Both the position numbers and the translations under genes were made by a program. From NCBI GenBank assembly GCA_035292885.1, contig DATDPG010000189.1, forward strand, positions 2,722-66,721: DNA of 64,000 bases, read 5' to 3'. The first letter of the stretch is position 1; each line of letters starts with the position of its first letter. The stretch is from Bdellovibrionota bacterium. Lineage in GTDB: Bacteria; Bdellovibrionota_G; JALEGL01; DATDPG01. Below the pieces are notes generated by a model, which was not told the origin of the DNA, made no database searches, and saw only the letters and a list, made by a program, of their open reading frames with translations. Shown here piece after piece: positions 2,632-38,961 of this stretch.

Positions 2632-4119
2632 TCACCGAGATTTATTGTCGGATCCGGGTTCGTCGGCCCGGTTGAAGCAGTTGTCCAATACTTTGTCCAA
2701 CCGCTGTGAATCCCCCTGAAGTCGGGATAGGTGGATCAAAATTTCTTCGATCACACCGCGGATGAGGTCGCACCGGTGTTTGGGAATGGGTTTCAACCGT
2801 TTCGTCTCGATTTCCACGCCCGCGACGCAGATGAAACAGAGATCTTGTGCCCAGCAGGAATGGCACTGCATTTCTTCCTTGTTCATTCCCTCGAATTTCG
2901 ATTGAACTTGCTGAAACTTGGGAGCGTGCGAGAAGTCGGCGTTCGAGATATGCCCCATATCGAATTCAGCTCGATCATTCATCATCTGGCAGGGAAAAAC
3001 CTTACCCGTGGACGAGACCGAAAAGAGATCCTTTCCCAAATTGGCGTAACAAAATTGGTTGGACGGTCTCTTCTCCTTCACGAAAAAAAGGCCGAGGACG
3101 TGCGACACTTGGTAGAGAACGATCGGCCGGTCGCTTCCCAGGGTTTCCAGAGAAAAGCGCGCGGCTTCGCGAAAGGCGGGAATAAGAAAGTCGTAGAATT
3201 CTCGTGTGGCGCTAGAGTCCTCAACCTCCCCCGCTGCGGGACCGATGGTGATCGATCGCGAGCCGAATTCGTCGCGGAAAAATTCGAGAAGAGTTTTGGG
3301 GGTGATCCCCATCTCACGATGTTTGGTCGTATAGGTGCTCTCAATGTTCGGGGAGATTCCCATCTCTTTCAGAAGTCTCAGTCCGGAAGCTATTTTTGAG
3401 TAACTCCCTTTTCCGCTGAGTGTAGGCCGAAGGAGGTCGTTGATCGGTTCCGGGCCGTCGATGGAAACTGTGACGCCAAAACGGTATTTGGCCAACATTT
3501 CAACGTTTTGCGGTGTGAGCAACGTGCCGTTTGTGACCAGCGAGAACGCAGGCTCCGACGCGCCCCTCCTCTTCGATTGCTCCAAGGCATACTCACAAAC
3601 CTTGGGGATGAGAGGCGCCTGCAGCATCGGTTCACCGCCGAAAAAGGTGATCGTTCCGATATGGCCGAACGCTTCGTAGAATCGATCCACCGCTTGAAAC
3701 GCCAGGTCCGGGCCCATCATTCCCGGAGGCGAATTGTAGGTTCCCCCATTTGCAAAACAGTATCCGCAACCCAAGTTGCACGCGTTGCTCACGTTGAGAT
3801 AAAGACTGATCGGCTTTTCTCTCGTCATGGTTTTCAGTTTGATTTGATCCAATCGCGACTGAGTGCGTTCCATTACGGAAATAGCTTCAGACACACTTTC
3901 CTCACTCCCCCCGAGTTCAGCCGCAATTTCAACTGTTTCTTTTCCGGTTTGAAGTTGCTTTGCGATTTCACCGAAGTCCTTGCTCAGTCTTATCAACGAG
4001 GATGCTTCGCGGTGATAGAGAAGATATTCCTCCGCATGTTCGATCAAATGAAAATGGGGAAAGCGGGCTTTCAATGAAATAGCTCCTGGCAAACGTGGAG
4101 AACCATCGATTCCGTGCAA
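2632..4119 (-). CDS. Radical SAM / SPASM-domain peptide maturase with an N-terminal PqqD-like (RRE) region
   Basis: 'CNLGCGYC' fits CxxxCxxC. The C-terminal Cys cluster is 'FPCQMMNDRAEFDMG...CHSCWAQDLCFICVAG'. N-terminal residues ~25-90 ('YLLYHREASSLIRLSKDFGEIAKQLQTGKETVEIAAELGGSEESVSEAISVM') look like a winged-helix PqqD/RRE fold. Confidence 0.85.
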   Translation of the reverse strand: MHGIDGSPRLPGAISLKARFPHFHLIEHAEEYLLYHREASSLIRLSKDFGEIAKQLQTGKETVEIAAELGGSEESVSEAISVMERTQSRLDQIKLKTMTREKPISLYLNVSNACNLGCGYCFANGGTYNSPPGMMGPDLAFQAVDRFYEAFGHIGTITFFGGEPMLQAPLIPKVCEYALEQSKRRGASEPAFSLVTNGTLLTPQNVEMLAKYRFGVTVSIDGPEPINDLLRPTLSGKGSYSKIASGLRLLKEMGISPNIESTYTTKHREMGITPKTLLEFFRDEFGSRSITIGPAAGEVEDSSATREFYDFLIPAFREAARFSLETLGSDRPIVLYQVSHVLGLFFVKEKRPSNQFCYANLGKDLFSVSSTGKVFPCQMMNDRAEFDMGHISNADFSHAPKFQQVQSKFEGMNKEEMQCHSCWAQDLCFICVAGVEIETKRLKPIPKHRCDLIRGVIEEILIHLSRLQGDSQRLDKVLDNCFNRADEPGSDNKSR

Positions 4120-4652
4120 TAAAGCTTCTCTTCCACCTCACCCGTGGCCTTGACCGTCACGCGACACGTCTCTTGCGGGATAAATCGGTGCCCGTACTCC
4201 TTAAGTAGTTTGAGATTTCGTTGTGTAACCCGGCTTTCGTACATTCGCCGGTTCATCGTCGGACCGAAATAAACAGGACTCGTCGCCGCCAAAACGAGGC
4301 CCGCCACCAGACTATCGCAAATTCCATGTGCGCACTTGGCGATCGTGTTGGCCGAGGCGGGATAAACCAACGTCACATCGGCCCAATCGGCGAGGTTGAT
4401 ATGGGGAACGGGAAACTCCTCCGTCGTATCCGTGTGATGTACGAACATCTTCCGACCGATGAGCTTTTCGACAACTTCACGTTCAAAGAAGCCAAGCGCC
4501 GCAGGTGTAGCTGCTACGATCACTTCATGCCGGCCGATCTCAGGATGATAAAGAAGATTGGAGACCAAACGCGGCGTGACCTCAGCCTGGACACACCCCG
4601 TGACCGCCAAAACAACATGGGGCAATCGACCTTTCGGCTTCGCCGAATTCAT
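4071..4652 (-). CDS. HFCD-family flavoprotein (EpiD/LanD/CoaC-like cysteine decarboxylase), copy A
   Basis: Motifs: 'VPHINLADWAD', 'YPASANTIAKCAHGICDSL', 'GPTMNRRMY'. I chose the start at M24 of the tracked ORF because ATG 4652-4650 overlaps the upstream TGA (4651-4649) as ATGA. The resulting length matches paralog B. Confidence 0.8.
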   Translation of the reverse strand: MNSAKPKGRLPHVVLAVTGCVQAEVTPRLVSNLLYHPEIGRHEVIVAATPAALGFFEREVVEKLIGRKMFVHHTDTTEEFPVPHINLADWADVTLVYPASANTIAKCAHGICDSLVAGLVLAATSPVYFGPTMNRRMYESRVTQRNLKLLKEYGHRFIPQETCRVTVKATGEVEEKLYCTESMVLHVCQELFH

Positions 4653-6814
4653 GCGGCTTGAACCTCCGCTGTACGCTTGCCGCGCGGGCGCGTCAGCCGA
4701 ACGATGCCGGCCCGGAACCACTTATAGAGATCTGTCCGGAGATCACGTACTTCAATGCCGCCGGCTTTTTCCACCGCGCTGATCAAGAGGGGATTAGGCC
4801 CCGCACGCCTTAAAATCGTTCCCAGGCGTTCCGAAATCGGAATCCATGCAAAGTCGACGGCGTTAAAGAGAACCCACTGACTGGCGGCTGTGCCGGGAAA
4901 CGACAGGATCCGGGAATCCTCGGAAAGCGAAATCTCCCACTCCTTCAAGTTCTCACCGGCGGAGAAAGCCTCACCACCCGGCAATACGATTTCCATCTCC
5001 GAAAGCGGCTGTTCGAGTTTCTTCCCTTCTCCCTTATCTCGATAGCGTGAAACATATAACAAGTGAGCCGCCCAGCAGCACTCGGACGGGAAAAGACCGG
5101 CTAAAACCGGAAGGTTTTGTCCTAGGCGCGCCATAAGTCTTTCCGTTTCCGCCTGCTGCTCCGGCGTCGGTTCTTGAATATTCACCAGCGAGAATTCCAA
5201 AGCATTGTCCAGATCGTGATCCGCGACCTTTTGGACGGAAGCCACATAGGGATTCCCTCCTTCGGCTATAGGAGCGCCGGGATCAAAATTAAAATCATAG
5301 AGGTGAATATAGTCGCCGGCTTTGGCGTATTCCCATACGGTTTCAAGCGTTTCCAGATATTCTTCCGGTTGCTCTCCAGGGAATGAACGAATCGTGTTCA
5401 GGTGGGCGGTTATCGGTGTGCCGCGCAAATCGCCCAAGAATCTCAAAACGCGTTCCCGGTCGTACCCCTTTTTCATGAGCTTTAAAACGCGGCTGTTGGC
5501 CGATTCCATTCCGACATGGAGAAGCGTGACACCGCCTTGGGCCAAGAGTTCGAGCCTCTCCTTCGTGAAATAGTTCTCGACGCGCGAATGCGCGTACCAT
5601 CGCGTGGAAAGCTTCTCCCGCGCGATCCGTTCGGCGATCTCAACGTGCTGTTTCGGTATGAGAAGTTCGTCGACAAAAAAGAGCTTGGTGGCTCGATAAA
5701 GCTTTTCGTACGTTTTGATGTCGTGAATGACCGAATCGGTGGTACGCGCGCGAAATTGGCCGAAATAGTTTTCATGATGATTGCAAAACGAACAGATGTC
5801 GTAATAACAGCCGCGGGTACAGTACATCGGCAGAACCGGCTCCGGCGTCCAGTAGGACTGTAGCCGAAGTCCCGAAAAGTCGGGCGTCGGCAGCTGATTC
5901 AAATCTTCTATTTTTTGGGAGGAGTTATGCCGGATGCTTTCTCCCTGCCGATAATGAAGATTGGGCACCGTTTTCAATTCACCACCGGTTACAACCGCAT
6001 TCAGGAGAGAAAGCAGTGCTTTTTCTCCTTCGAAGGTCACGACGTAATCAAAGATATCGAATGTCTTGGCGTTACTGCAGATCACGTCCCGGAGCGTTGT
6101 GATAAAGCTTCCTCCGATCACGAACGCTTTGGAAACCGCTGCCTCCCGCATCCATCGCGCCAGCAGGAGTGCGGGCAGCAGTTGCTGTGGATTCGCACAG
6201 GAGAAACCGACGAGGTCAAATGGCGAATTCCTCGTTAAGAACGAGAGGTGCGATTGGAAAAACTCGTGAAGAAGCCGGTATGAATTCTCTTGTCCGGCGA
6301 ATTGAATAAGATCGTCCATGGAAAAGCGCATTCGCGTGCGGTCGATCTCGACCGAAAAACCATTTCCACCGAATGTGTGCCGTATCGGATCCGGCTCGGT
6401 TGAATAACATTCCAATGCAAGTCGAACGATCGCCATCGCGCGGTCATACATACGGGTGTCGTAATAGCGTTTCGGGTCGTGAAAGATGTCAATGGCATCC
6501 TGGATCGCAGACCGGAGCTGCGGCAGCATATACAGAGCTTTAGCCTGGAGCGTTTCCGTCCCTCCCACGGCTTCTTTGGAACGAATCTTTTCTTCTTGTT
6601 TCAGCAAAGTCGCAGGTTCGAGTAAAAAGCCCAGGAAACCAAGATTGCTGTCCCAGACATCCACCTCTCCAACGCCTTGGGCTTTAAGATATCCTGTCAG
6701 GCAAGGGATCCCGAGAGTAGGCATGTCGACATAGGATGCAGGAGGGTACACCAGCAGCACTTTGGCGCCGGCAAGATTATGCGGAGAACCGCCCGTCGGG
6801 TGTGGTTTTTTCAT
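4649..6814 (-). CDS. B12-binding-domain (class B) radical SAM enzyme
   Basis: The N-terminus 'KVLLVYPPASYVDMPTLGIPCLTGYLKAQG' is typical of a cobalamin-binding domain. The Cys cluster is 'YCTRGCYYDICSFC'. Size is 721 aa. It is the first gene of the 6814->2632 operon. Confidence 0.75.
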   Translation of the reverse strand: MKKPHPTGGSPHNLAGAKVLLVYPPASYVDMPTLGIPCLTGYLKAQGVGEVDVWDSNLGFLGFLLEPATLLKQEEKIRSKEAVGGTETLQAKALYMLPQLRSAIQDAIDIFHDPKRYYDTRMYDRAMAIVRLALECYSTEPDPIRHTFGGNGFSVEIDRTRMRFSMDDLIQFAGQENSYRLLHEFFQSHLSFLTRNSPFDLVGFSCANPQQLLPALLLARWMREAAVSKAFVIGGSFITTLRDVICSNAKTFDIFDYVVTFEGEKALLSLLNAVVTGGELKTVPNLHYRQGESIRHNSSQKIEDLNQLPTPDFSGLRLQSYWTPEPVLPMYCTRGCYYDICSFCNHHENYFGQFRARTTDSVIHDIKTYEKLYRATKLFFVDELLIPKQHVEIAERIAREKLSTRWYAHSRVENYFTKERLELLAQGGVTLLHVGMESANSRVLKLMKKGYDRERVLRFLGDLRGTPITAHLNTIRSFPGEQPEEYLETLETVWEYAKAGDYIHLYDFNFDPGAPIAEGGNPYVASVQKVADHDLDNALEFSLVNIQEPTPEQQAETERLMARLGQNLPVLAGLFPSECCWAAHLLYVSRYRDKGEGKKLEQPLSEMEIVLPGGEAFSAGENLKEWEISLSEDSRILSFPGTAASQWVLFNAVDFAWIPISERLGTILRRAGPNPLLISAVEKAGGIEVRDLRTDLYKWFRAGIVRLTRPRGKRTAEVQAA

Positions 6815-7005
6815 CTTTCTTTAAGGGAGGCTTGGGTATTTCCTTCGACGATTCTATTTTAAGATATGAATCCCGCCTCAGTCTAATCATGATCTACGTC
6901 ATGATTTGTGCGGGTACTTGACAACCGAGTAAACAGGAATCAACCGCGATTGCGAAAGCCCCGATCGCAAAAGCCGCCGCACTATAAGCCAATAGAATCA
7001 ATAGG

Positions 7006-10625: not shown

Positions 10626-11210
10626 GTGAAGAAATTGCGCCAAAGGAAACGTCATGTCCTGCTTATGGTGACAGGCTGCGTCCAAGCCGAACTTACACCG
10701 AAACTCGTTTCCGACTTGAAATCCTTCCCCGGGATCGGCCGGCCGGAAGTCATTGTCGTAGCCACCCGGCCCGCGCTTAAATTTTTCAACACGGCAAAAA
10801 TTGAACGACTTACGGAGCATAAGGTTTTTGTTGACCACGAGGACGGCACTGTGGAATTTCCGGTCCCGCACATAAATCTTCCCGAATGGGCGGATGCCAT
10901 CTTTGTTTATCCCGCTTCAGCGAACACGATTGCTAAATGTGCCCACGGACTGGCGGACAGCCTCGCTTCCAATATTGTGTTGGCCGCAAAACGCCCCGTA
11001 TTTTTTGGCCCTACGATGAATAAGGCTATGTACGAAAATCCTGTGACTCAACACAATCTAAGACTCCTCAAAAAGGCGGGATATGTTCTTTTGCCTCGAA
11101 AAATGTGCCGAGTCACGGTGAAAGCCACGGGGCAGGTGGAAGAAAGGCTTTTCTGCCCGGAGAGCATGGTGCTGGCCATGTGCTTAAAGCTATTCCGACA
11201 CAGTCCATGA
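10626..11210 (+). CDS. HFCD-family flavoprotein (EpiD/LanD/CoaC-like cysteine decarboxylase), copy B
   Basis: GTG start. Motifs 'VPHINLPEWAD', 'YPASANTIAKCAHGLADSL', 'GPTMNKAMY', 'CRVTVKATGQVEE'. It is collinear with copy A along its whole length. Confidence 0.8.
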   Translation: MKKLRQRKRHVLLMVTGCVQAELTPKLVSDLKSFPGIGRPEVIVVATRPALKFFNTAKIERLTEHKVFVDHEDGTVEFPVPHINLPEWADAIFVYPASANTIAKCAHGLADSLASNIVLAAKRPVFFGPTMNKAMYENPVTQHNLRLLKKAGYVLLPRKMCRVTVKATGQVEERLFCPESMVLAMCLKLFRHSP

Positions 11211-15511: not shown

Positions 15512-17680
15512 CTAAAATAAGTAGTTCGTCCATATGAAGTAAACGGCTCCCAGCCAAAAAGGTTGAAACAATACGTATATGAGCGGTTTCATTCCAGCGT
15601 CAATTGTGGCGGTCACACGGGTTCCAAGCCGAAGTTCCGAAGTGTCGGGGCATCTTATCTGACCCTTAATCAACACAGTAGACTCGGGTGGGGACATACC
15701 CATAAACGCCCATTCCTTGGATTCGCGTGGTACGTATGTAGGAGAAAGATGAATTAAACGTCCATTGCAGGGTATTCCGGTCACAACCAGCGACACCCGA
15801 AATGGTAATCCCATTCTAAGTTCCGAAGCCTTTTTCTCGGAAATCAACAATTCGATTCCCAACTCTCCAGTAGCCAATAGAACGAGGGGATCCCCCTTAC
15901 GCACGGAATGTCCAGCGACGTCATGAAGCATCGGCGTAATCACAATCCCTCGATCCGGGCTTCGAATCATAAGATCCGATCCCCCTTTTGAAATTCGGAA
16001 GAGCGGCGCACCAACCCCCACATGTGCACCCTCTTCCACGTATACCTCTTCAATCGAACCCCCACCCGTTGATCGCACGAGTGTGGACTGCAGAGGGAGA
16101 ATCGTACCCTCCGCCGGAATTCTATAGGGAATGGGAGCCATAAGGGCTGCGCCTAGCAGGAGCATGCACACGATGGGTTTCCAAGATATTCTAAACCGGT
16201 AGAGAGATCGCAAGAAATGGGCGCGATTTGTCTGTGGTACTCTTCGTAGAAGGTAGCCGATCATTCGCGATATCAAGGCTAGAAGCATGAGCAGATAAAG
16301 AATTTGCGGGAAAAAAATTGAATATGCCCATGCGATAGAGACAAGCCATAAAGTGAGCAGAAGTTCGCACGTTAGAAAGAAGATCGTGGAGAAATAAAAC
16401 AGCCAGAACCAGCGAATCTCCCGCGATGTTGGAACGGATGTTGTTTGGGCTTTGTTCCCCGTAATCGCCTGAAGGATTCTTGAATTGCAGTACCGGAAGC
16501 TTCGCGAATAGAGATTATCGATGTTGAGCAGATCGGACAAAATGAAATAGCCGTCCAGTTTGAACACGGGGATAATGCTGAACAAAATATCAATCCCATT
16601 GGCGAGACAAAAAAGAAGCCCAAGCAATTGGATGTAGGACCCGGAGGGCGCCACACTCCAAACAATCATTCCGCAGCTCCAGAGTACGAGTTGAGATAAA
16701 ACGCCGGCGAGCATGACGAGGATTCTATTTCGTTGTCGGAAGAAGTAGCTGTCTGAAACGTCCGCGAAGAAGGCCGGAAGAAATCCAAGAAAAAGAATCA
16801 CCCCCATACGCCGAACCTTCCCTCCGAACTTGTAACAGGTTAGTGCATGGCCGAATTCGTGGGCGACAACAGAGAAACGATTAACAAAAGTCGCCAACAC
16901 GATGTGGTTGAGCATTTGATATATCGGTTTGTTAAATCCCCTGATCCAGTAATCGCTGTGGACCCAAAACAAAACCTGTGCGACGAAAAACAGTCCGGCC
17001 ATCAAAGTCAGCGTGAAACGGGAAAACAGCAGGTTGATAAGCGGCTTAAAACGGCCGAAAATTTCCTGGGGATCAAACAGATTGAACTGTGTGGTGAGAG
17101 CCGGCAGATGGCGCTGTCCCCCGTCCGCCGTGGAAGTTTGTGTTCGCAAAATGGCCTCTGTGGCGGTGTCTTTAGCCCAAAGGTGATCGCGTTCTAACTC
17201 GTTCCCAAGATTCGATCTTTTGGTGATTTCGATGAGCCCAACGGGATCCGCATTATGGAGTCGACAAAAAAGGTCTGACCAGAAGTTCACTTCGATCGAG
17301 GTGGGATGCTTCATGCCCCAGCGACGACGCAAAAAGCGAGCAAACATGTTTTTGAGAGACGAAGTGATTGCGAGCCGCTGAGACGGTGAAAGCTTGAGAT
17401 GGTGATCTGGTTCCAGGAGTCCTTTTCTATCCATATTTACGAGAAACCCTTCGATGGAATCGGATTCCATTTCGACGCCGTATTTATTCGAAAGAAATTC
17501 GCTTGCCTCAACGGCAGTGGCCGGGCACCGTTGGAAGAATCGGAGAAGCCCATATTGGAAGAAGGACAGTGACCAGTAGGTACCGAGAATCGGGTCTGCG
17601 GCAATGTGACTTAGTTTTCCGCGAGAATATGTGCTTCGGATCGAAATATCCGATCGAACTTTAAAGATCCTATACGACAA
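15512..17680 (-). CDS. Polytopic M50-type (site-2-protease-like) zinc metalloprotease fused to a HlyD-like periplasmic adaptor domain (YydH-like 'peptide zinc metalloprotease')
   Basis: 'VVAHEFGHALT' (HExxH) and 'KLDGYFILSDLLNIDNLY' lie in a multi-TM region. The C-terminus has a barrel-sandwich/lipoyl-like segment 'GGSIEEVYVEEGAHVGVGAPLFRI'. The N-terminal ~95 aa is a soluble PqqD-like region. Confidence 0.75.
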   Translation of the reverse strand: MSYRIFKVRSDISIRSTYSRGKLSHIAADPILGTYWSLSFFQYGLLRFFQRCPATAVEASEFLSNKYGVEMESDSIEGFLVNMDRKGLLEPDHHLKLSPSQRLAITSSLKNMFARFLRRRWGMKHPTSIEVNFWSDLFCRLHNADPVGLIEITKRSNLGNELERDHLWAKDTATEAILRTQTSTADGGQRHLPALTTQFNLFDPQEIFGRFKPLINLLFSRFTLTLMAGLFFVAQVLFWVHSDYWIRGFNKPIYQMLNHIVLATFVNRFSVVAHEFGHALTCYKFGGKVRRMGVILFLGFLPAFFADVSDSYFFRQRNRILVMLAGVLSQLVLWSCGMIVWSVAPSGSYIQLLGLLFCLANGIDILFSIIPVFKLDGYFILSDLLNIDNLYSRSFRYCNSRILQAITGNKAQTTSVPTSREIRWFWLFYFSTIFFLTCELLLTLWLVSIAWAYSIFFPQILYLLMLLALISRMIGYLLRRVPQTNRAHFLRSLYRFRISWKPIVCMLLLGAALMAPIPYRIPAEGTILPLQSTLVRSTGGGSIEEVYVEEGAHVGVGAPLFRISKGGSDLMIRSPDRGIVITPMLHDVAGHSVRKGDPLVLLATGELGIELLISEKKASELRMGLPFRVSLVVTGIPCNGRLIHLSPTYVPRESKEWAFMGMSPPESTVLIKGQIRCPDTSELRLGTRVTATIDAGMKPLIYVLFQPFWLGAVYFIWTNYLF

Positions 17681-18740
17681 GATTCACGCGTATGTAGCGA
17701 GTGATCTGCCGCAGGAGAATCGTCCCTGCCGTTCGCCATCCGATGGCGATATGCCCGATTCCGGTCATCCCCGGTTTAAGTCCGGGATGTGCATTATCGC
17801 AGTCGGCATATACGCGGAAAAATCGTTCTGGCGGTTCAGGTAAGTCCTCCTTCGGAGTTTCCGCCATAGGCGCGATCCTGGTCAGGGTCGCCGTAAAGGT
17901 CTCTTCCGGAATCGCCTGGACCTTGAACTCAATCAAGTCGCCTTCGTGGATGAGGGCAACGTCCTTTTCGCTGACATAGATTCGAATCATCATTTTTCGC
18001 AGGTCGGATACTTCCATGATTAGATTGCCGGGTTCGACCTGCTGCCCGATCAAACGCGAAATATCGGAGGATACGACGACGCCATTTATGGGCGAGCGTA
18101 CGAGCGGATAAGCTTCTTTGGTACGGCCGCCATGTAAACGAACAAGGGGCTGGTCAATAGTGACCGCGTCTCCTTCCTGAACAAAAACCTTGTCGATGGT
18201 GCCTAAGAGAAAGGTACGAACAAAGAATCTACGGGATGGCTCGACGAGCAGGTTGCCACCTACGTGTAACTTCCATGGGAAGACCAACAAGATGACGGTG
18301 GCAAGCGCAAATTTCCCGATTTTCGAATTCACAACACGAACCAGGAGACGCGAATCGGTGGCATGGCTGCGAATCTTTTTAAGCTGCTCAAGCCCTTCGA
18401 CGGCTCTGCCCGGCATGAACGATAAAGTATTCTTGTGTTCGGCTTCATCGAGGCCCAGAGTTGAAAGAGGGTCCTCCAGAAAACCGAGAGTTTCGGATTT
18501 CTGTAGAAAATCGAGCACCTGATCTCGATCGATCTGAAGCCCATGTTCGTCACGTAATTTAATACACACGGTTTCGATATCCCATTCTCCGGATTCAAAT
18601 TGTTCCGCTACCAAGTAACCGGTGGAATCGAGACGTAATGTGGCTCCCGTACGGGAATCATTAAGTTGAAAATGGGAGGGATCAAGTTGCTGGATTTGAA
18701 GATCGGATCGAAGCTTGGGTTGTCGCCTTGCGGTAGTCAT
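17670..18740 (-). CDS. HlyD-family membrane-fusion/adaptor protein with an N-terminal PqqD-like domain
   Basis: It has one TM ('FALATVILLVFPW') and lipoyl-like hairpin motifs 'IDKVFVQEGDAVTIDQPLVRL' and 'VVSSDISRLIGQQVEPGNLIMEV'. It overlaps the downstream M50 gene by 11 nt. Confidence 0.7.
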   Translation of the reverse strand: MTTARRQPKLRSDLQIQQLDPSHFQLNDSRTGATLRLDSTGYLVAEQFESGEWDIETVCIKLRDEHGLQIDRDQVLDFLQKSETLGFLEDPLSTLGLDEAEHKNTLSFMPGRAVEGLEQLKKIRSHATDSRLLVRVVNSKIGKFALATVILLVFPWKLHVGGNLLVEPSRRFFVRTFLLGTIDKVFVQEGDAVTIDQPLVRLHGGRTKEAYPLVRSPINGVVVSSDISRLIGQQVEPGNLIMEVSDLRKMMIRIYVSEKDVALIHEGDLIEFKVQAIPEETFTATLTRIAPMAETPKEDLPEPPERFFRVYADCDNAHPGLKPGMTGIGHIAIGWRTAGTILLRQITRYIRVNLVV

Positions 18741-19011: not shown

Positions 19012-19128
19012 ATGAAGAAAGAAACAAAGAAAGTGGAAGTCAAGAAGGTTAAATTGGATCTCGAGATCCTGGAACTTGAGGCCAAGATTGCTCCCAAGCT
19101 TACGCAGTCTTCTGGCGCAGAGTGCTAA
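19012..19128 (+). CDS. Unannotated 38-aa peptide, MKKETKKVEVKKVKLDLEILELEAKIAPKLTQSSGAEC; candidate RiPP precursor with C-terminal Cys
   Basis: ATG at 19012 is preceded by AAGGAG (19000-19005, 6-nt spacer). TAA is at 19126-19128, followed by an intrinsic terminator. The N-terminus is charged, helical and leader-like, and the tail is small-residue-rich ending in the only Cys. Tailoring and export genes surround it. Confidence 0.6.
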   Translation: MKKETKKVEVKKVKLDLEILELEAKIAPKLTQSSGAEC

Positions 19129-19152
19129 TTTAGCCTTCCTAACGGCTTAGAG

Positions 19153-19179
19153 AAAAAGGCCCCCAAGCGGGGCCTTTTT
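19153..19179 (+). terminator. Rho-independent (potentially bidirectional) terminator
   Basis: AAAAA (19153-57), GGCCCC (19158-63), loop CAAGC, GGGGCC (19169-74), TTTTT (19175-79). It starts 25 nt after the peptide stop codon. Confidence 0.8.
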
Positions 19180-19673
19180 CTTGTGGTGCGCCCATCATGG
19201 GCAATTGTCCAGTAATTCCCAGAGAATCCAGTTTGATAAATGTGCGCGTATCGGTTCTAAATCTTCCATCAAGATCTTCAGAGTTGTATTTGAGCGACCG
19301 TTGCAGCAAAGTCCAAACAGTGGGCTAGAGGCCGTAAAAGCGTATAGAGAACAGCAATTCCCGTAAAGTGAAGCGACCCGGACGAGGCTCTTGGAACTGA
19401 TTATCTCGGTATTCTTCAAGCAAACGGTCTAACCCACCATATTTGTTTTCTCAGAAATTCCATCAAATTCACCCGCGATTCGAATAGACTTATTGGTCCC
19501 TCGATCTCTTCCTACCCTAACAACCCTATGAAGATGAAAGACCTTACAAAATAGTAGTGCGGGAGGAGGATTTCCCGACATTCAGAGAAGTAGCGTATAA
19601 AGTTTCGGCTAAGATCAACATCACGGTTTCCAAAATCGTAACCGGTTCCCTTTGTGGATAGGGCTCAAAATAG

Positions 19674-22016
19674 TTGCCATGTAACGTCCTTGGGAGGTAC
19701 TTAACTGAGGTGATTTGGACTCTTCCATGGAAGGATCCATCTTTCTTTCTTGCTGAGGAGTCGGATGTTCAGGGATCTCAGGCTTCTGTCGACCATAATC
19801 TTTTTTTTCGGGATTTCCTTGCCTCCTCAAAAGTTATTCGACAGCAGAAGAAGGATGCTCAAGCCCGAGTTGTCCAACTGAATCGCCTTGAACGATTGCG
19901 TGGAGAGGAGGTGCGCGCATACTCCCACGCAATTCGAGAGATCACTGTCATCAACTCGCTGATCTCGCGATCGAACAGAGCTCCAATCAAGGACCTAGAG
20001 CTTTGGGAGGATTATATTTACCTGCTGACTTCCGACAATACGTCCTGGTATTTCTCGCTCACAAAGGCCTGTTACCGATTTAATTGTCCGCTGACCCAGA
20101 TCTTAAATCCATCCACTTACGGTAGAATCGGAAACCTCTGGAACCTATATCTCGAGTCCTATCTCCATCAAACGACTGAACGATTCGACCGACAAGATCT
20201 TGAGATTCTTTTTTCGGAAGAAGGTCAGTCCCCTTTTCTGATCAGTGCTTTACCATTGCTGGCCGATCCCAATATTAACGTTACGATCCTAGTTTTGGGT
20301 CCAGACCGTTTTGACTCCAAGTTTTTGGAGGCCCTGCGGAAAGTCATTACCACCGGGGCTCCAGGCGCTCGTTTTATGGTAAGTCCCCTCAGAAAACAGG
20401 GGCGTAATACGCGCGCGAAGAAGACCGGTCCCCAACCAGCGCGCCTACTTACCTGGAGGTTTGACCACTCGTTCCTGAAATCAGGAACCCAGCTGCGGGT
20501 GTTTAAAAAACAGCTGATGAATCTGAGTCGTGGCACAATCCGGCCCTTTCTCCAGGTGCATCTTGCGATGGATTCGTTTCCCAGGCAGCAGCAAGCTATC
20601 TTCGCCGTCATGGATACTGTTCTTGAGATCCAAAATAATATCTCCGGATTCGACCTAAGAATACACGTCGGGAGCCTCATAGGCCCCGACGGACGTGAAC
20701 TGAACTGGGAAACACAGCAAATGCGAATCGCTAATGTGGAAGATGTGATCAAGACGCTGCTCTGGGCCGAGTTCGACAATCGGGCGCTGGTTCCGAAACG
20801 AGCTCGCCGCTGTTCCGACGACGTATATGCCTCAGGAGTTTCATTGAGAGCGCGACAGCCGACTGAAGTGGAGAGCTGTTTTCCGTTGGATGAGATTTCC
20901 ACATTGGAGCCGCCATTAAGTCGTCACCATCTACGTTTTGGGCGTGATTTTCAGGATATGATCATCGATGAATTTGAAGCTGAAAAGCGTCCACATAAAT
21001 TTCTCTTCTTCGGCAACGGCCCTTTTGTTGTGGGCTCAACGCCGAGGCATGCGACTGCAAGGAGCATTTTACGGACGTTTCAGCGATGGCGTCCCCTTAA
21101 GTCGTATCTTAAGGTTTTTAGAAATTCCGAAGATCAAAAAAAAATGCTTTCGGTTTTGGACCTCCTCGTACGTAACGAAATCCTTGAGGTCCGCAGACCC
21201 CTTCAGCGCCGCCGTAAGATCTCGGCCCCGTCCAAACATGGCTGTATTCATTTCGTAGGCGTGGGACCCGGCGAAGAGGGTGCCATGAGCATCGGGGCGG
21301 CCGCCGCCTTGGACGGTGCTGAGGAGATTTGGATGCAGGATCTCGGACCTCCTGGATTTGAGCGCGCGTTTTTGCGTCGATGGATTTACAATGCTCCAAA
21401 GGTCGTGAACCTGAGCAGCTTTTATGATATCGCCGAGGCCTCGCGCTCTCTCTTTTATAACATCACCCCTCGGCGAATTTTGCACCTGGCGCAACAGGGA
21501 CGATCTATTACCTTCGCTTTCTCGGGAAACCCCGAGGTGTGGGTGTATCTCACGGAAGTGGTAAAACAGCACACGTTGCATCAGAGGGTGGCCCTGAAGC
21601 TGACTCACTCTATGTCGTTCATAGACATCATGTACGAAGCGACCCCCCTCTCGTTTCCCGACAAAGTTCAAGTGCGCCTTGGAGGCGTGACCGCTCCGGA
21701 TATTTCGCCAAATATGGATTGTATCCTTGGTCAGTTGGGGGATAGAGGAAAGACAGGATTCCACAGCGCCACGAAGCAGCTGGTAGAGGATCTCCAGCGA
21801 TTTTTTCCTGATGACCATCCGATATTTCTGTCCGGAAACCACGCAATTTCCGGGACCCAGAAATCTTTACAAATATCGGTGAAGGAGCTTGCAGCCGTAG
21901 CTCTGAAATTCAATCAATGGAATTTCAGCGCTTTGATCCCTTCACTTAGCCGTGGACGGCTGGTTCAAAAGTTGTTTGCGGAAGGAAACCCCGACAATTC
22001 AATGGTTTTCTTCTGA
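19674..22016 (+). CDS. Large protein of unknown function with a C-terminal tetrapyrrole-methylase-fold (TP_methylase-like) domain
   Basis: C-terminal ~260 aa: 'IHFVGVGPGEEGAMSIGAAAALDGAEEIW', 'GRSITFAFSGNPEVWV', 'THSMSFID'. I recognise nothing in the N-terminal ~520 aa. The start is uncertain (the tracked start is TTG). Confidence 0.5.
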   Translation: MPCNVLGRYLTEVIWTLPWKDPSFFLAEESDVQGSQASVDHNLFFRDFLASSKVIRQQKKDAQARVVQLNRLERLRGEEVRAYSHAIREITVINSLISRSNRAPIKDLELWEDYIYLLTSDNTSWYFSLTKACYRFNCPLTQILNPSTYGRIGNLWNLYLESYLHQTTERFDRQDLEILFSEEGQSPFLISALPLLADPNINVTILVLGPDRFDSKFLEALRKVITTGAPGARFMVSPLRKQGRNTRAKKTGPQPARLLTWRFDHSFLKSGTQLRVFKKQLMNLSRGTIRPFLQVHLAMDSFPRQQQAIFAVMDTVLEIQNNISGFDLRIHVGSLIGPDGRELNWETQQMRIANVEDVIKTLLWAEFDNRALVPKRARRCSDDVYASGVSLRARQPTEVESCFPLDEISTLEPPLSRHHLRFGRDFQDMIIDEFEAEKRPHKFLFFGNGPFVVGSTPRHATARSILRTFQRWRPLKSYLKVFRNSEDQKKMLSVLDLLVRNEILEVRRPLQRRRKISAPSKHGCIHFVGVGPGEEGAMSIGAAAALDGAEEIWMQDLGPPGFERAFLRRWIYNAPKVVNLSSFYDIAEASRSLFYNITPRRILHLAQQGRSITFAFSGNPEVWVYLTEVVKQHTLHQRVALKLTHSMSFIDIMYEATPLSFPDKVQVRLGGVTAPDISPNMDCILGQLGDRGKTGFHSATKQLVEDLQRFFPDDHPIFLSGNHAISGTQKSLQISVKELAAVALKFNQWNFSALIPSLSRGRLVQKLFAEGNPDNSMVFF

Positions 22017-22157
22017 CGGTCGACGTGGTGAAGAAACTAGATATCCACGGGCTTACGCCCGGGGATCTTCTAAGGTGTATTAGAGGAGATTATCTCCAAA
22101 ATCCTGGATAAAATGGATAAATTAGAAGTAGTTGAGTAACCTTACGTTCTATCATCT

Positions 22158-23408
22158 GTGTTGAACCTTCCTTTTCAAGTTTACTTTGCCTTCCCCGACG
22201 GTCTTCTTCGTTATAATTGTCCGGAATGTGGTTTCCAATGTTGCAAGGGCGCTGGTTTCGGTGTCACCGCTAAAGAAATGACCAAACTGGAAGTCTTGTA
22301 CCCTACGCTTAAATATTTTGCTCAACCAGCTACCAGACGAGCCGTAACAGGCGTGCCACTCATCAATCTGAAGCCGAAATGTTTTTTCTTACAAGACTCT
22401 GGTTTTTGTGACATACAAGCCAAACACGGCCGCGATTTCAAACCTATAGTTTGTAAAACATTCCCGGCAAACGCCTATTTCTTTTCGAATGATATTCTTG
22501 TGGTGGACGTTAACTTTCTTTGTCCGCTTAAGATTTCTAGCTCTCCAGAAAATGATGCGGTTTTGTATTATGAGGACATTTTGAAAGATATTATGGTTGC
22601 AGCCGATTACATTAAAGGCGCAGGAACAGTAACAGCTAGGAGGCCCGAACAACCCCCACAAGTGAGAGAACTCACAAAGCAAATCATTCAGCATGAAACT
22701 TGGTCTCGAGACTCTTTTCGTAGGATAGAAACGACGGACTTGTTTGATGTGCTTGCCACCTGGGAATTAACGTCTCTACAAGAGAATGACAGTGAACCTG
22801 AAGTGCCACCGCCACATTTGATCACAGAAAAAAAACAAGAGCTTGAGTTGTTCCGACGGCAAATAGTAATGTTTATCGGCGCTGAAGATTACCTTGCGAC
22901 ACGAAGCACTATCGACGATATGGCATTAATTGTACTGTCTTCGTCGATCCGGATGTCAATCTTGAAACGATTCCCCCACATTGTGTACGAAACGGAATTT
23001 TTGCCATCTATCTCACGAATATTTTGTGCTGCGTCAACCCTTGTTCAACTTGCGTCAATAACGCAAGGCACTCCCTGCTCTCTGCAAGCAGTTTCTACAG
23101 TAACGTCCTCGTTTCTCGCTGCAATTTTCCTGCTTGGACATTTAGATCATGTGCCAACGATTCCAGCCCCAAGAGAGGGAGAAAAGATGACCATTGACGC
23201 AGCACTGTCCTACGAAGGTAACATAAAAAGATTCTTTCAATTCGTATATGAGCAGAACGACGAACTAAATCTAACGTTGAGAGAGATTGTTGAGCAGCAT
23301 GCAAAAGAAGATCGATTTGACTCGTTGATGTTTCTTAAGAGCTTATCCGGGAACGCAATAAGCCGTATGAAGTTTCTACCAAAGGGCCCAACGCATTCGA
23401 TATCGTAA
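22158..23408 (+). CDS. YkgJ/UPF0153-like Cys-cluster (CxxCxxCC) protein with a long extension of unknown function
   Basis: 'YNCPECGFQCCKGAG' matches the CxxCxxCC zinc/iron-chelating motif, and further Cys residues occur at 'KCFFLQDSGFCD' and 'PIVCKTFP'. GTG start. Confidence 0.5.
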   Translation: MLNLPFQVYFAFPDGLLRYNCPECGFQCCKGAGFGVTAKEMTKLEVLYPTLKYFAQPATRRAVTGVPLINLKPKCFFLQDSGFCDIQAKHGRDFKPIVCKTFPANAYFFSNDILVVDVNFLCPLKISSSPENDAVLYYEDILKDIMVAADYIKGAGTVTARRPEQPPQVRELTKQIIQHETWSRDSFRRIETTDLFDVLATWELTSLQENDSEPEVPPPHLITEKKQELELFRRQIVMFIGAEDYLATRSTIDDMALIVLSSSIRMSILKRFPHIVYETEFLPSISRIFCAASTLVQLASITQGTPCSLQAVSTVTSSFLAAIFLLGHLDHVPTIPAPREGEKMTIDAALSYEGNIKRFFQFVYEQNDELNLTLREIVEQHAKEDRFDSLMFLKSLSGNAISRMKFLPKGPTHSIS

Positions 23409-23422
23409 CTTGATGTGTCAGA

Positions 23423-25156
23423 TTACTGCTTAATGAGCTTTGCTTGATCCAAAAACCCAAGAATCTTTTTTGCACTTTCACCTACATTTTCGGTGTCGGT
23501 CCTTACCAGGACTTCGGGGTTATCAGGAGGTTCATAGGGATCTGATACTCCTGTGAAGTTTTTAATCTCGCCTGCGATCGCTTTTTTATATAGGCCCTTT
23601 ACATCCCGATTGATCAACGTATTTAATTCGGCCTTCACAAAAACCTCTACAAAAGGAACGCCGTCTTGCGCCGCAAGTTTTCGCACTTCATTCCGAATCT
23701 CTTTGTAAGGCGAAATCGCAGCCGTTATTGCGATGACACCGTTTCGCGCTAAAAGTCGGGCCACGAATCCAATCCTCCGAATATTGGCGTCGCGATCTTC
23801 TTTGGAAAAGCCAAGCCCCTTGGAAAGATACGTGCGAACCTCATCCCCGTCCAAAATTTCAAGTCGGCGATTGGAGAGTTGTCGTTTAATGACATTCGCA
23901 ATCGTACTTTTTCCTGCACCTGACATTCCCGTGAACCAAAGGATGAAACCCCCTGGTGAATTCGTAGAGATTGTAGGAGCATTTGTGCGATTTTCGGATT
24001 TTGTATCGGCAGCGTAATAATCGCGAAGAACCTTTGCAACTTCAGGGCGTGTAAACTCTTGGGGGAGGTTCCCTCCACTACGCAAGATGTCGCGTACTTT
24101 GGTCCCAGAAAACTCTAATCGTTCAGAATCCCCATGAGGGCAGGTGCGCTCAGAGGCTAGGTTTCCGCATGCCTTGCAATAGAATGTGGGATCAAATTTG
24201 AGAGCAACTACACCCAACTCCGATGGTTCAAAACGATCAAAAATCTCCTGAGCCTCGAGCGGCCCGTAAAACTTTCCGACGCCTGCATGGTCGCGCCCTA
24301 CAATGAAATGGGTGATGCCGTAGTTTTTCCTAACCAGGGCGTGAAAGATGGCTTCGCGAGGTCCCGCGTAGCGCATAGCCGCAGGGAAAGCTGCAAGCAG
24401 CGTACGGTCTTTTGGATAATAATTCTCGATCAGAATTTGATAGGCCTGGAAACGGACCGATGCGGGGATATCATCGCTCTTGGTTTCACCGATAAGAGGA
24501 TGGATCACGAGACCATCGGTAAATTCCAAGGCAAGCTTTGTTAGATGTTCATGCGCGCGGTGGATTGGATTTCGCGTTTGAAAGCCGGCCACACGTTGCC
24601 ATTTTCGCTGAGCGATCTTTTCTCTTAAAGCTTTTGGGGTCAGACGATACTCGGAAAAAGAAAGATTGGAGGGGAGGGGTAGAACCTTTACCTTTCCGCC
24701 AATCAAAAGGGTCGGCCTAGAAAGGAGATAGGCCACTCCTGGATGGCTCGGATCTTCCGTGCGATAGATCGCCTTTGCCTCATGTTTTGGATCTCGCTCA
24801 AAAATCTCTTCGATTTGAAGAACTCCCCAGAGTCGATCTGTACTATCGTAAAGCGCTGCCTTCTTCCCCACAGATAGCTCTTTTCGCTGGATATCATTGA
24901 TAGCTATCGTTATGGGTAGTGGCCAAACCGTCCCGTTTGACAGTCGAAGTCGGTCGAGGACGTTTAAATAGTCAGCAGACCCCATGAACCCTTGCAAAGG
25001 ACTAACAGCTCCTACTGCAATGAGCTCTAAATCTGCCAATTCCCGATTATCGAGTGTGAGCTTTGGAAGTGTCTTAGCTTCTTTTTCAAATTCAGAAAGC
25101 TCCGCCGAAGAGACGAGGCATTCAATTAATTGCCCACCATGAGGTTCGGTTAGCAT
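23423..25156 (-). CDS. sat-cysC: Bifunctional sulfate adenylyltransferase / adenylylsulfate kinase (PAPS synthesis)
   Basis: ATP-sulfurylase motifs 'FQTRNPIHRAHE' and 'VGRDHAGVG'. The C-terminal APS-kinase P-loop is 'WFTGMSGAGKSTIA'. Confidence 0.9.
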   Translation of the reverse strand: MLTEPHGGQLIECLVSSAELSEFEKEAKTLPKLTLDNRELADLELIAVGAVSPLQGFMGSADYLNVLDRLRLSNGTVWPLPITIAINDIQRKELSVGKKAALYDSTDRLWGVLQIEEIFERDPKHEAKAIYRTEDPSHPGVAYLLSRPTLLIGGKVKVLPLPSNLSFSEYRLTPKALREKIAQRKWQRVAGFQTRNPIHRAHEHLTKLALEFTDGLVIHPLIGETKSDDIPASVRFQAYQILIENYYPKDRTLLAAFPAAMRYAGPREAIFHALVRKNYGITHFIVGRDHAGVGKFYGPLEAQEIFDRFEPSELGVVALKFDPTFYCKACGNLASERTCPHGDSERLEFSGTKVRDILRSGGNLPQEFTRPEVAKVLRDYYAADTKSENRTNAPTISTNSPGGFILWFTGMSGAGKSTIANVIKRQLSNRRLEILDGDEVRTYLSKGLGFSKEDRDANIRRIGFVARLLARNGVIAITAAISPYKEIRNEVRKLAAQDGVPFVEVFVKAELNTLINRDVKGLYKKAIAGEIKNFTGVSDPYEPPDNPEVLVRTDTENVGESAKKILGFLDQAKLIKQ

Positions 25157-26016
25157 AGTTTTGCTTGATCAGGTGCTACGGAAAAGACCTCTTTGGCTAC
25201 ACGGTTCCAAATTTCTTGGGGTGCCGCAAAAATCCCACCCGGTTGATGAGGATCCTTTTTACCATAGCGAAATTCTTTTCCATAACAGTCTGTAACGATA
25301 CCGCCTGCGCCACGAAGAAGCGCTTCCGGCGCACATGTATCCCATTCCTTCAAAAATGGTACCGGATGAACGTAAAGATCGGCTTGATCTTGCGCGATCA
25401 TCGCACATTTTAGCCCTACGGAGCCACAAAGGACGATTTCTGCGTTCTTTAGTCTTGTCTTAAGTTGTTCCAGTTTTGGATCCGGGTGAGATCGGGAACA
25501 GACAAACCTGAGACGAGGCGATGGAGATTGAGAAAGGATGAGTGGGTGAGGTGTTTTCTCTTCCGTCGGCTGTTCCACCATCCAGGCGCCTATCCCTATC
25601 CCTCCAAAGTGGAGAATGCCAGGGTCTGGACGATAAACCGCTCCTAGCTGGCACTTTCCATTCAGTGCAAGACCAACCATGACACTGAATTCTCCCGTTT
25701 GACTAATAAAGTCATTCGTTCCATCCAATGGATCCACTAACCAGAGCCGGTCGGAAGCTTTGTCCTCTTCATCTGGCGGGCTCTCTTCACTCACGATCCG
25801 GTCTTTTGGGAAATGTTGGTGCAGCATTTCTAAGATGATTCGGTTTGCGGCAAGATCCGCCTCTGTGACAAAGTCCCCTGGCTTTTTCTCCCGCGTCATT
25901 AACCCTTTTTTACGATAGTATTTGAGCGCTTCCCTTCCTGCCAAAACTGCGGCTTTAGTCGCGATTTTAAATTCCTGAACGAAACTTTTTATCTCTAATG
26001 GAAGAATAGAAATCAT
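25150..26016 (-). CDS. cysQ: 3'(2'),5'-bisphosphate nucleotidase (inositol-monophosphatase family)
   Basis: 'VSEES', 'WLVDPLDGTNDF', 'WDTCAPEALLRGAGG'. It overlaps sat-cysC by 7 nt. Confidence 0.8.
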   Translation of the reverse strand: MISILPLEIKSFVQEFKIATKAAVLAGREALKYYRKKGLMTREKKPGDFVTEADLAANRIILEMLHQHFPKDRIVSEESPPDEEDKASDRLWLVDPLDGTNDFISQTGEFSVMVGLALNGKCQLGAVYRPDPGILHFGGIGIGAWMVEQPTEEKTPHPLILSQSPSPRLRFVCSRSHPDPKLEQLKTRLKNAEIVLCGSVGLKCAMIAQDQADLYVHPVPFLKEWDTCAPEALLRGAGGIVTDCYGKEFRYGKKDPHQPGGIFAAPQEIWNRVAKEVFSVAPDQAKLC

Positions 26017-26052
26017 GTTACATTTTTTTTGTAAGTTCAGTAAACTTTTGAA

Positions 26053-26805
26053 ATGAACCCAATGGCCATCTTTCTTGGGTTTTTTGTAGGAACTCTGGTG
26101 GGTTTCACATCTATTGGTGGCGGAGCTTTGCTTACTCCATGCCTCATTCTTATTTTACACATTTCACCTTCCATCGCGATTGCCACAGATCTCTTTGTCG
26201 GAAGTATTACAAAATTTGTGGGGGCAGGGACCTACGCGATTCGTCGAGAGGTGAACTGGGAAATAGTCGGTCGGCTCGCTTCTGGATCGGTTCCTGGAGC
26301 CATCCTGGGAACTCTTCTGATGAACTATCTCCCAAAAGAGGATCTCGAGCCGTTGCTCAAGCATCTTCTAGGTCTAGTCTTGATCCTGGCGGCAGCATCG
26401 TCATGGGCGAGAAGTAGATATTACAAACGAATTTCAGAACCTAAAGCAATGCCTTCCTTTGTTCGAACTATGATTTTTGGCTTTCTTGTGGGATTTATTG
26501 TGAGCATGACAAGCATTGGAAGCGGATCGGTTCTTCTTCTTATTATGACTCTCTTTTTCCCGATCCATCCCAAGACCATTGTTGGAACCGATCTCATGCA
26601 TGCGGTGGTTCTTTGCTCAGCGGCATCACTCGGCCATTTGTTAAAAGGAAGAGTTGATTTTCATTTGGCAAGATCGATCTTAATTGGAGCCGTGCCTGGA
26701 GTTCTCCTCGGTGCGCAGCTTGTTTTGATTCTTCCAGCAAGGATTATTCGAACTGTTCTAACCGTAGTTTTGATGCTGGTCGGACTTCTAATGTTGTTGC
26801 ATTAG
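26053..26805 (+). CDS. TauE/SafE (TSUP) family sulfite/sulfonate exporter-like membrane protein
   Basis: About 8 predicted TM segments with an internal repeat carrying Gly-rich motifs ('FTSIGGGALL', 'MTSIGSGSVLL'). Size is 250 aa. Confidence 0.7.
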   Translation: MNPMAIFLGFFVGTLVGFTSIGGGALLTPCLILILHISPSIAIATDLFVGSITKFVGAGTYAIRREVNWEIVGRLASGSVPGAILGTLLMNYLPKEDLEPLLKHLLGLVLILAAASSWARSRYYKRISEPKAMPSFVRTMIFGFLVGFIVSMTSIGSGSVLLLIMTLFFPIHPKTIVGTDLMHAVVLCSAASLGHLLKGRVDFHLARSILIGAVPGVLLGAQLVLILPARIIRTVLTVVLMLVGLLMLLH

Positions 26806-26913
26806 AGGCTGGGATGTCTGTAATTAGATTGGCTTTTTATCTATTCTTTCTCTTTCTGATGGTTGCCAAGTAGCGAATAAGATGAATACATTATCATCAC
26901 TTTCTACCGAACT

Positions 26914-26922
26914 TGTTATAAT
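26914..26922 (+). promoter_or_regulatory. Extended -10 promoter candidate upstream of the sulfotransferase gene
   Basis: TGtTATAAT (TG 26914-15, TATAAT 26917-22) lies 46 nt upstream of the GTG start at 26968. The -35 is weak ('tcatca'). Confidence 0.3.
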
Positions 26923-26967
26923 TTGACGTATGCATAACTCATACAATACAGCCTTTTTTAGTCGTTT

Positions 26968-38862: not shown

Positions 38863-38961
38863 ATGTCTACAGATACGGCCCGGTTCATTTCGCCGCGCGT
38901 CGCGAGCCGATTGCCAAAAAAACTAGGTCTTTTTAGCAAGTTCGCATACCTTTACCACTAG
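38863..38961 (+). CDS. Possible 32-aa small ORF, MSTDTARFISPRVASRLPKKLGLFSKFAYLYH
   Basis: AAGGAG at 38848-38853 lies 9 nt upstream of the ATG. It is divergent from the LanB-like gene and 34 nt upstream of the lipoprotein gene. No terminator or conservation evidence is available. Confidence 0.25.
   Translation: MSTDTARFISPRVASRLPKKLGLFSKFAYLYH

Follow-up and report, generated by a model that had tools for sequence, protein, structure and literature searches.

What do two radical S-adenosylmethionine (SAM) enzymes act on when their genes enclose that of a flavoprotein related to cysteine decarboxylases? This question is raised by a three-gene locus at positions 2632-6814 of a 64,000-nucleotide stretch of contig DATDPG010000189.1 from a Bdellovibrionota bacterium, and this whole stretch is referred to below as the window. 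The locus encodes a predicted cobalamin (B12)-type radical SAM enzyme, a flavoprotein of the HFCD type (Cys decarboxylases that are homo-oligomeric and contain flavin) and a radical SAM/SPASM enzyme. We consider it probable, at roughly 0.6, that the operon is a self-contained tailoring module for a ribosomal peptide or protein tail encoded elsewhere in the genome. The genes and their junctions are as follows.

4649-6814, minus strand: predicted cobalamin-type (class B-like) radical SAM gene, 721 amino acids
4071-4652, minus strand: HFCD flavoprotein gene (LanD/CoaC-like), 193 amino acids from its ATG; the open reading frame (ORF) is also open from 4721
2632-4074, minus strand: putative radical SAM/SPASM peptide maturase gene, 480 amino acids, or 495 if the start is at 4119
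4649-4652, minus strand: ATGA overlap between the B12-type radical SAM stop and the HFCD start, exact in the sequence ...GCCGC ATGA ATTCG
4071-4074, minus strand: probable TTGA overlap between the HFCD stop and the radical SAM/SPASM start, backed by the 480-residue gene call P0001

The original prediction described three co-directional, overlapping and coupled genes, with an ATGA at 4649-4652, and the minus-strand ORFs confirm both the arrangement and the exact position of this overlap. A GGAGG box precedes the HFCD ATG at 4652, and a GGAG box precedes the TTG at 4074. The SPASM gene probably starts at this TTG, because the database gene call, the N-termini of homologues and the GGAG box all point to it. 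This start gives a 4-nucleotide overlap with the HFCD gene, and the predicted overlap of up to 49 nucleotides is the maximum, reached if translation began at the first TTG (4119). Residue numbers of the SPASM enzyme's N-terminal domain follow the 495-residue numbering from 4119. Homologues with 45-69% identity have the same gene arrangement and overlapping junctions on other contigs, so translational coupling appears to be a conserved trait, and the three genes are predicted to form one translationally coupled operon. Promoter and terminator scans of the region gave nothing above chance, and Rfam and tRNA scans returned 0 matches, and thus no cobalamin riboswitch. A plausible precursor ORF was not found immediately upstream (6815-7005), in agreement with the prediction.

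The radical SAM enzymes and their predicted docking domains

Both radical SAM enzymes were compared with domain and family models and modelled with AlphaFold2. The features on which their assignment depends are listed here, where RRE stands for the recognition element of peptides that are ribosomally synthesized and undergo post-translational modification (RiPPs).

3850-4053, minus strand: RRE-like beta3-alpha3 domain at the N-terminus of the SPASM enzyme, residues 23-90, as modelled by AlphaFold2
3757-3780, minus strand: canonical CX3CX2C SAM-cluster motif of the SPASM enzyme, C114/C118/C121, invariant in SPASM alignment A1
2770-3051, minus strand: SPASM region with seven Cys residues (C357, C377, C419, C422, C428, C431 and C450) that are invariant in the homologue alignment
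5915-6763, minus strand: Rossmann-type (B12-binding-like) domain at the N-terminus of the B12-type enzyme, residues 18-300, from AlphaFold2 secondary structure
5783-5821, minus strand: Cys motif CTRGCYYDICSFC of the B12-type enzyme, residues 332-344, with the functional part C336-x4-C341-x2-C344 at 5783-5809
4691-4936, minus strand: RRE-like C-terminal domain (residues 627-708) of the B12-type enzyme, as modelled by AlphaFold2

The SPASM enzyme matches the Pfam families Radical_SAM (PF04055, 2.7e-21), Fer4_12 and SPASM (PF13186, 7.8e-05; 23.3 bits against a cutoff of 21.5). Its best NCBIfam models are PapB (2e-45), nif11 (2e-43), QhpD (2e-39, more exactly 1.7e-39), CcpM (5e-38) and SCIFF (9e-35). 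A close kinship with anaerobic sulfatase maturases had been named as a finding that would speak against a peptide substrate; the model of these enzymes scores 6e-27 and ranks well below the peptide maturases. An RRE is not expected in sulfatase maturases, whereas the SPASM enzyme has an RRE-like N-terminal domain as modelled. All of these models stay under their curated cutoffs, at 155 of 340 bits for PapB, 149 of 519 for nif11, 136 of 453 for QhpD, 131 of 500 for CcpM and 120 of 425 for SCIFF, and so does the anaerobic sulfatase-maturing model TIGR03942 (94.6 bits vs 349). When a profile of the six closest SPASM sequences was searched against the PDB, CteB was matched at 3.9e-42. The AlphaFold2 model is of good overall confidence (predicted local distance difference test, pLDDT, 82; predicted template modelling score, pTM, 0.85), and a Foldseek search with it placed CteB first, with template modelling scores of 0.70/0.82 over ~460 columns, followed by TigE, the anaerobic sulfatase-maturing enzyme anSME, ChlB, SkfB and SuiB. 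TigE-type cyclopropyl synthases have a Gly-Tyr-Trp motif through which auxiliary cluster I receives a Tyr ligand (PMC10878394). TigE is the fourth structural match, and the SPASM protein contains no such motif.

The N-terminal domain of the SPASM model consists of three strands (residues 23-28, 31-36 and 41-45) and three helices (47-57, 62-68 and 73-90) at a pLDDT of 88-93, and this beta3-alpha3 order is that of a PqqD-type RRE. Alignment of the domain by hhalign with the N-terminus of homologue P0105, which is annotated with PqqD, gave a probability of 69% and an E-value of 4e-5. As modelled, the N-terminus is a PqqD-type docking (RRE-like) domain, consistent with the original prediction, and CteB, which itself bears an RRE, is the top match by sequence as well as by fold. 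The architecture of an N-terminal RRE, a radical SAM core with CX3CX2C and a seven-Cys SPASM region is common to the CteB/SCIFF- and PapB-type thioether synthases of sactipeptides and ranthipeptides. CteB is only 20-21% identical to the SPASM enzyme, and unlike the CteB and PapB types, the operon has no adjoining Cys-rich precursor, its partners being the B12-type radical SAM enzyme and the HFCD. A further likeness is to QhpD, the maturase of quinohemoprotein amine dehydrogenase, which makes thioethers in a protein subunit: its model matches SPASM residues 23-429, with the N-terminal domain included. Unlike in QhpD systems, qhp genes are found neither in the window nor in related loci.

The 721-residue protein matches Radical_SAM (PF04055, 1.1e-16; 61.9 bits against a cutoff of 29.5), and its match to the B12-binding family PF02310 (residues 197-270) is sub-threshold at 20.2 bits vs 32.1. 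Its homologues P0128-P0132 carry a B12-binding annotation. In the AlphaFold2 model (pLDDT 85, pTM 0.87), a conserved and confidently modelled helical insertion of ~140 residues (56-195) interrupts the Rossmann-type domain behind its strand two, which would explain the weak Pfam match. The best ten Foldseek rows are TsrM, CysS, OxsB and MgmA, all of them cobalamin-type radical SAM enzymes, and TokK was also matched. The best NCBIfam model is TIGR03975, a RiPP radical SAM C-methyltransferase (6e-42), whose cutoff of 281.85 bits is not reached at 143.9 bits. These matches suggest a cobalamin-type (class B-like) radical SAM enzyme, as predicted from the model. As modelled, its Rossmann-type N-terminal domain and radical SAM barrel are common to the class B enzymes (TIGR03975 C-methyltransferases, CysS, TokK, TsrM, OxsB, MgmA and PbsB), from which it differs in the interruption of the Rossmann-type domain, in the spacing of its Cys motif and in an added C-terminal domain.

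The Cys motif had been read as a four-Cys cluster of the form CX3CX4CX2C. The string is present and is non-canonical, as stated, but the four-Cys reading does not hold: C336, C341 and C344 are invariant in 13 homologues, whereas the position of C332 is occupied by S, A, G or C. The SAM-cluster motif is therefore CX4CX2C, which appears to be a family trait, and the TIGR03975-like relative P0140 has CX7CX2C in its place. The C-terminal domain, which the original prediction missed, contains four strands followed by helices 662-671, 678-685 and 689-701 in the AlphaFold2 model. It aligns with the profile of the SPASM N-terminal domain at a probability of 79% and an E-value of 1.6e-5 in hhalign, with 66 columns in register. 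According to the models, the B12-type enzyme carries its own RRE-like domain, so that there is one docking domain per radical SAM enzyme. The reactions of class B enzymes are diverse: OxsB is a B12-type radical SAM enzyme that performs a ring contraction, and PbsB makes C-C cross-links in RiPPs (PMC12257519). Since B12-type radical SAM enzymes in RiPP pathways cross-link as well as methylate, the operon's enzyme may do either.

The flavoprotein and the distribution of the module

The HFCD of the operon matches the Flavoprotein family (PF02441, 4.5e-25; 88.6 bits against a cutoff of 22.7) and contains His84 (nucleotides 4401-4403), PASANT at residue 98 and PTMNRRMY at residue 131, in which the Trp of PxMNxxMW is replaced by Tyr. 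Its relatives in the PDB include phosphopantothenoylcysteine (PPC) decarboxylases, EpiD, MrsD and CypD, and the structure scores of CoaC/CoaBC and of the LanD type are comparable. With the LanD-type peptidyl-cysteine decarboxylases (EpiD, MrsD, CypD and TvaF) and CoaC, the operon HFCD shares the HFCD fold, the catalytic His (His84), PASANT and PxMNxxM. The clamp of the operon HFCD is unlike those of both groups. This region cannot be aligned with PPC decarboxylases, and phmmer alignments end before it. We take the clamp motif of CoaC to be ACGD with the catalytic Cys, as in the Dfp literature; at the position that we assume for this motif, alignment A5 contains no conserved counterpart, and Cys163, the sole Cys of the clamp's first strand, is replaced by Ala in three HFCD orthologues. 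Assignment of the HFCD as CoaC was rejected, as its scores lie under the equivalog cutoffs (91 vs 261 bits for CoaC and 116.5 vs 220 for CoaBC), the clamp is without ACGD and Cys163 is not conserved. The CypD model also stays under its cutoff, at 18 vs 215 bits. Unlike LanD pathways, the operon is without lanthipeptide, linaridin or thioamitide machinery, and no Ser/Thr dehydratase of the kind used in aminovinyl-cysteine pathways was found in the operon or related loci.

Close relatives of the module are few: among 5.8 billion proteins, the SPASM enzyme has five and the B12-type enzyme has about nine. The radical SAM pair is adjacent in the window, L001, L002, L003/L004, L086, L087, L089 and the P0004 contig and is fused in L088; L085 is the only locus with the B12-type gene alone. 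The HFCD gene is present in five of ten loci, which form the closest subgroup (the window, L001, L003/L004, L086 and the P0004 contig), and the pair occurs without it in L002, L087, L089 and the fusion locus L088. The gene order on the P0004 contig is permuted to HFCD, B12-type enzyme and SPASM enzyme. Upstream of the module, this contig has a gene for a beta-eliminating lyase of the tryptophanase/tyrosine phenol-lyase family and a further radical SAM gene of 397 amino acids. The fusion is the following.

L088, 137-3193: natural fusion P0127 of a B12-type radical SAM enzyme and a SPASM enzyme, 1018 amino acids

P0127 has a single RRE-like domain, which lies between its two catalytic parts and directly before the SPASM-enzyme core. 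Its gene neighbours have housekeeping functions (RNase PH, NAD synthase and RecO). The flanks of related loci are varied, largely housekeeping (OmpA, PilZ, major facilitator superfamily, RNase PH and NAD synthase) and partly syntenic. An OmpA-family gene is syntenic between L001 (5354-6814) and L002 (6228-7682), and the PilZ/PatA_N protein encoded directly after the SPASM gene in L002 (2260-4449) has a 43%-identical homologue in the window at 61161-62933 on the plus strand, 55 kb away. The PilZ/PatA_N homologue and the OmpA synteny together suggest that the module's surroundings on the chromosome are related but rearranged.

Precursor genes were looked for around these loci. An all-against-all BLAST of small ORFs (18-130 amino acids) around nine related loci recovered only antisense frames of conserved genes, a search for conserved accessory genes (80-1500 amino acids) around related loci recovered only the OmpA and PilZ synteny, and none of the neighbouring proteins in related loci has a C-terminal Cys. 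As no family member has a precursor beside it, a substrate in trans appears to be a property of the whole family. Among the matches listed, a profile scan of genome contigs gave only distant SPASM enzymes (at most 32% identity), and a metagenome scan with the B12-type profile gave a different, unpartnered subfamily (at most 34% identity).

The candidate precursor at 19012 and competing explanations

The original prediction placed the substrate in trans at 19012. The features that bear on this proposal are the following.

19012-19128, plus strand: candidate precursor peptide MKKETKKVEVKKVKLDLEILELEAKIAPKLTQSSGAEC, 38 amino acids, Lys-rich, with C-terminal Cys38
15512-18740, minus strand: RiPP-type intramembrane metalloprotease (daptide HExxH model NF041824, 1.4e-46) fused to HlyD, overlapping a second HlyD gene
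19674-23408, plus strand: 780-residue protein whose C-terminal domain is tetrapyrrole-methylase/YabN-like, and a 416-residue relative of FliB-like (CxxCxxCC) lysine methylases, just downstream of 19012
10626-11210, plus strand: second HFCD paralogue (HFCD2), 63% identical to the operon HFCD, possibly linked but outside the conserved unit

The 19012 ORF is a called gene in the database. Among intergenic ATG ORFs of the window, it alone ends in Cys, and no other gene there looks convincingly like a precursor. It has GAAGGAG 7 nucleotides upstream and a 14-bp hairpin with a T-run on its 3' side (19150-19182; folding free energy -28 kcal/mol, z -3.5). The 545 nucleotides between the peptide and the gene for the 780-residue protein (19129-19673) are non-coding. 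A HMMER search with the peptide in 1.84 billion representative proteins found only itself. The second HlyD gene has a weak N-terminal PqqD match (E = 0.009). Homologues of the protease-HlyD fusion belong to a widespread M50/HlyD family (at most 31% identity) annotated as 'putative peptide zinc metalloprotease', and neither HFCD nor radical SAM genes were found near them in the two contexts read (L170 and L171). JmjC/cupin and Asp/Asn hydroxylases also belong to this RiPP-style set. Genes between the operon and 19012 encode a short-chain dehydrogenase/reductase, a hydrolase and an ATPase that are absent from the other loci. The operon copy is nearer than HFCD2 to the HFCDs of other loci, which suggests that HFCD2 is a lineage-specific duplicate. 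HFCD2 leads a plus-strand run (DUF5916/CBM9 protein, JmjC/cupin and Asp/Asn beta-hydroxylase) in the direction of the 19012 region. In the 19012 peptide, Ser33 and Ser34 stand 4-5 residues before Cys38. A 781-residue protein near L089 was considered as a relative of the 780-residue protein and proved unrelated.

Is the 19012 peptide the true substrate of the operon? It would then be recognised in trans through the RRE-like domains, decarboxylated at Cys38, cross-linked, methylated, and cleaved and exported by the adjoining M50-type protease/HlyD. Trans action is forced for the operon by the lack of a cis precursor throughout the family, and no other gene in the 64 kb looks like a precursor; the C-terminal Cys suits an HFCD, of which two paralogues lie at most 15 kb away, and the neighbourhood of 19012 supplies protease and export proteins and no radical SAM enzyme. 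These points lend plausibility to the link that was predicted, but it is unproven. The peptide gene is 12 kb from the operon on the opposite strand, beyond unrelated genes in other orientations, and is accompanied by its own RRE-like HlyD and tailoring genes. A tblastn search with 16 window proteins against 169 loci found no homologue of the 19012 cluster near any family member, none being present within 10 kb of any related locus, and comparison of the intergenic regions upstream of the operon, HFCD2 and 19012 revealed no shared motif above shuffles. Moreover, the peptide has no homologue, its one Cys would have to serve both the HFCD and a thioether synthase, and HFCD2 alone could explain its C-terminal Cys. 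We regard the 19012 peptide as a reasonable candidate that is less likely than not to be the substrate. Somewhat under even odds may be given to two independent systems, in which maturation of the 19012 peptide would fall solely to the proteins encoded around it (HFCD2, JmjC/cupin and Asp/Asn hydroxylases, methylase-like proteins and the protease/HlyD) and the operon would act on a different peptide or on a protein tail encoded outside the window. Other loci have the module without any 19012-like cluster, frequently with housekeeping or syntenic genes (OmpA, PilZ) around it, and the 19012 locus has a weak PqqD-like domain of its own on HlyD. A protein-tail substrate has precedents in QhpD, which acts on QhpC, and in the methylases of methyl-coenzyme M reductase; the QhpD model match takes in the SPASM N-terminal domain, and MgmA is among the structures closest to the B12-type enzyme. 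On the other hand, no alternative substrate is visible, the neighbours in related loci are without a C-terminal Cys, and an HFCD duplicate beside the 19012 region, in the source genome only, is left unexplained.

A pathway to a small molecule or cofactor seems improbable. In such a pathway the thiol decarboxylated by the HFCD would be cysteinyl or pantothenoylcysteine-like, and both radical SAM enzymes would tailor a non-peptide or carrier-bound substrate. This would fit the CoaBC and CoaC models as the best-scoring families of the HFCD, the absence of a precursor gene for the operon, the pantetheinylated or small substrates of the solved B12-type relatives CysS and TokK, and the beta-eliminating lyase and additional radical SAM gene that precede the module on the P0004 contig. 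It is opposed by the two RRE-like domains, one on each radical SAM enzyme, by the nearest relatives of the SPASM enzyme, which are all peptide maturases, and by the CoaC/CoaBC scores, which are far below cutoff for a protein whose clamp has no conserved counterpart of the CoaC motif. We thus return to a module that tailors a ribosomal peptide or protein tail encoded elsewhere, and several findings weigh against it in turn. The PqqD family PF05402 does not match the SPASM N-terminal domain even at E-values up to 10, and the best family scores of the HFCD are to the CoaBC and CoaC models (1.4e-33 and 6.9e-26). Half of the loci are without an HFCD gene, and Cys decarboxylation is therefore no core activity of the family. 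The syntenic flanks suggest a vertically inherited cellular function more than a typical natural-product cluster. No substrate of the operon was identified, and no NCBIfam model of a characterised family reaches its cutoff, which makes the chemistry an extrapolation.

Other loci in the window may be concerned with peptide modification or lie beside the 19012 cluster. A complete sulfation cassette follows this cluster directly (23423-27810), with an ATP sulfurylase/adenosine phosphosulfate kinase fusion, a CysQ-like phosphatase, a TauE exporter and a sulfotransferase; its target may be a peptide or a polysaccharide. A TldD/PmbA-type metallopeptidase gene pair lies at 29830-32621 on the minus strand; members of this family are sometimes used for RiPP leader removal. 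In an 859-residue protein at 36234-38813 on the minus strand, the N-terminal lantibiotic-dehydratase domain (PF04738, 3.2e-21) stands alone, as in small LanB proteins or peptide aminoacyl-tRNA ligases (PEARLs). In the divergent intergenic region beside its gene there is a 32-residue ORF with an AAGGAG box (38863-38961, plus strand). The two genes may be another peptide-modification locus, or the 859-residue protein may dehydrate Ser in the 19012 peptide; this LanB-like protein is encoded 30 kb from the operon, and no evidence links it to the operon.

Proposed chemistry and significance

In the reaction sequence that we propose for the module, the leader of the substrate would dock on the RRE-like domains, and the HFCD would oxidatively decarboxylate a C-terminal Cys to an enethiol. 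The SPASM enzyme would form a cross-link, most likely a thioether. Given its seven conserved SPASM Cys residues, auxiliary cluster I would be held by three Cys ligands and, as in CteB, would probably keep an open site. The cobalamin-type enzyme, with its CX4CX2C SAM cluster, would methylate or cross-link an unactivated carbon. A bolder version, which we put forward as a long shot, is a C-terminal aminovinyl-thioether macrocycle made by a radical route without a Ser/Thr dehydratase. In the CteB-like enzyme, the enethiolate from the HFCD would ligate the open auxiliary cluster I site, and an unactivated carbon of an upstream residue would be joined to it. A methyl group or second cross-link would come from the B12-type enzyme, and both radical SAM enzymes would be steered by their RRE-like domains to a leader supplied in trans, for example that of the 19012 peptide.

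In the literature searched, an HFCD, a SPASM enzyme and a B12-type radical SAM enzyme were not found together in any described system. Judged by its sequences, the module fails every curated equivalog test and is a member of no named family. By analogy, it resembles a radical SAM tailoring set for RiPPs that is RRE-guided and comprises a CteB-like cross-linker, a class-B-like radical SAM enzyme and a LanD-like decarboxylase. ProcM and the prochlorosins likewise have enzymes encoded away from substrate genes. In trans systems of this type, the precursors form a recognisable family (Nif11/NHLP); unlike in prochlorosin systems, a precursor family for the operon's module was not found.

Radical SAM maturases of RiPPs are a main source of new peptide chemistry, and this module is a sharply defined target among them, with a tiny family of about ten sequences, a docking domain predicted on both radical SAM enzymes, a natural fusion and a precursor beside no member. 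If the HFCD and the thioether-type enzyme share a terminal Cys, they would yield a cross-link of a new type. The module also exposes a blind spot of cluster-based genome mining, which depends on a precursor in cis.

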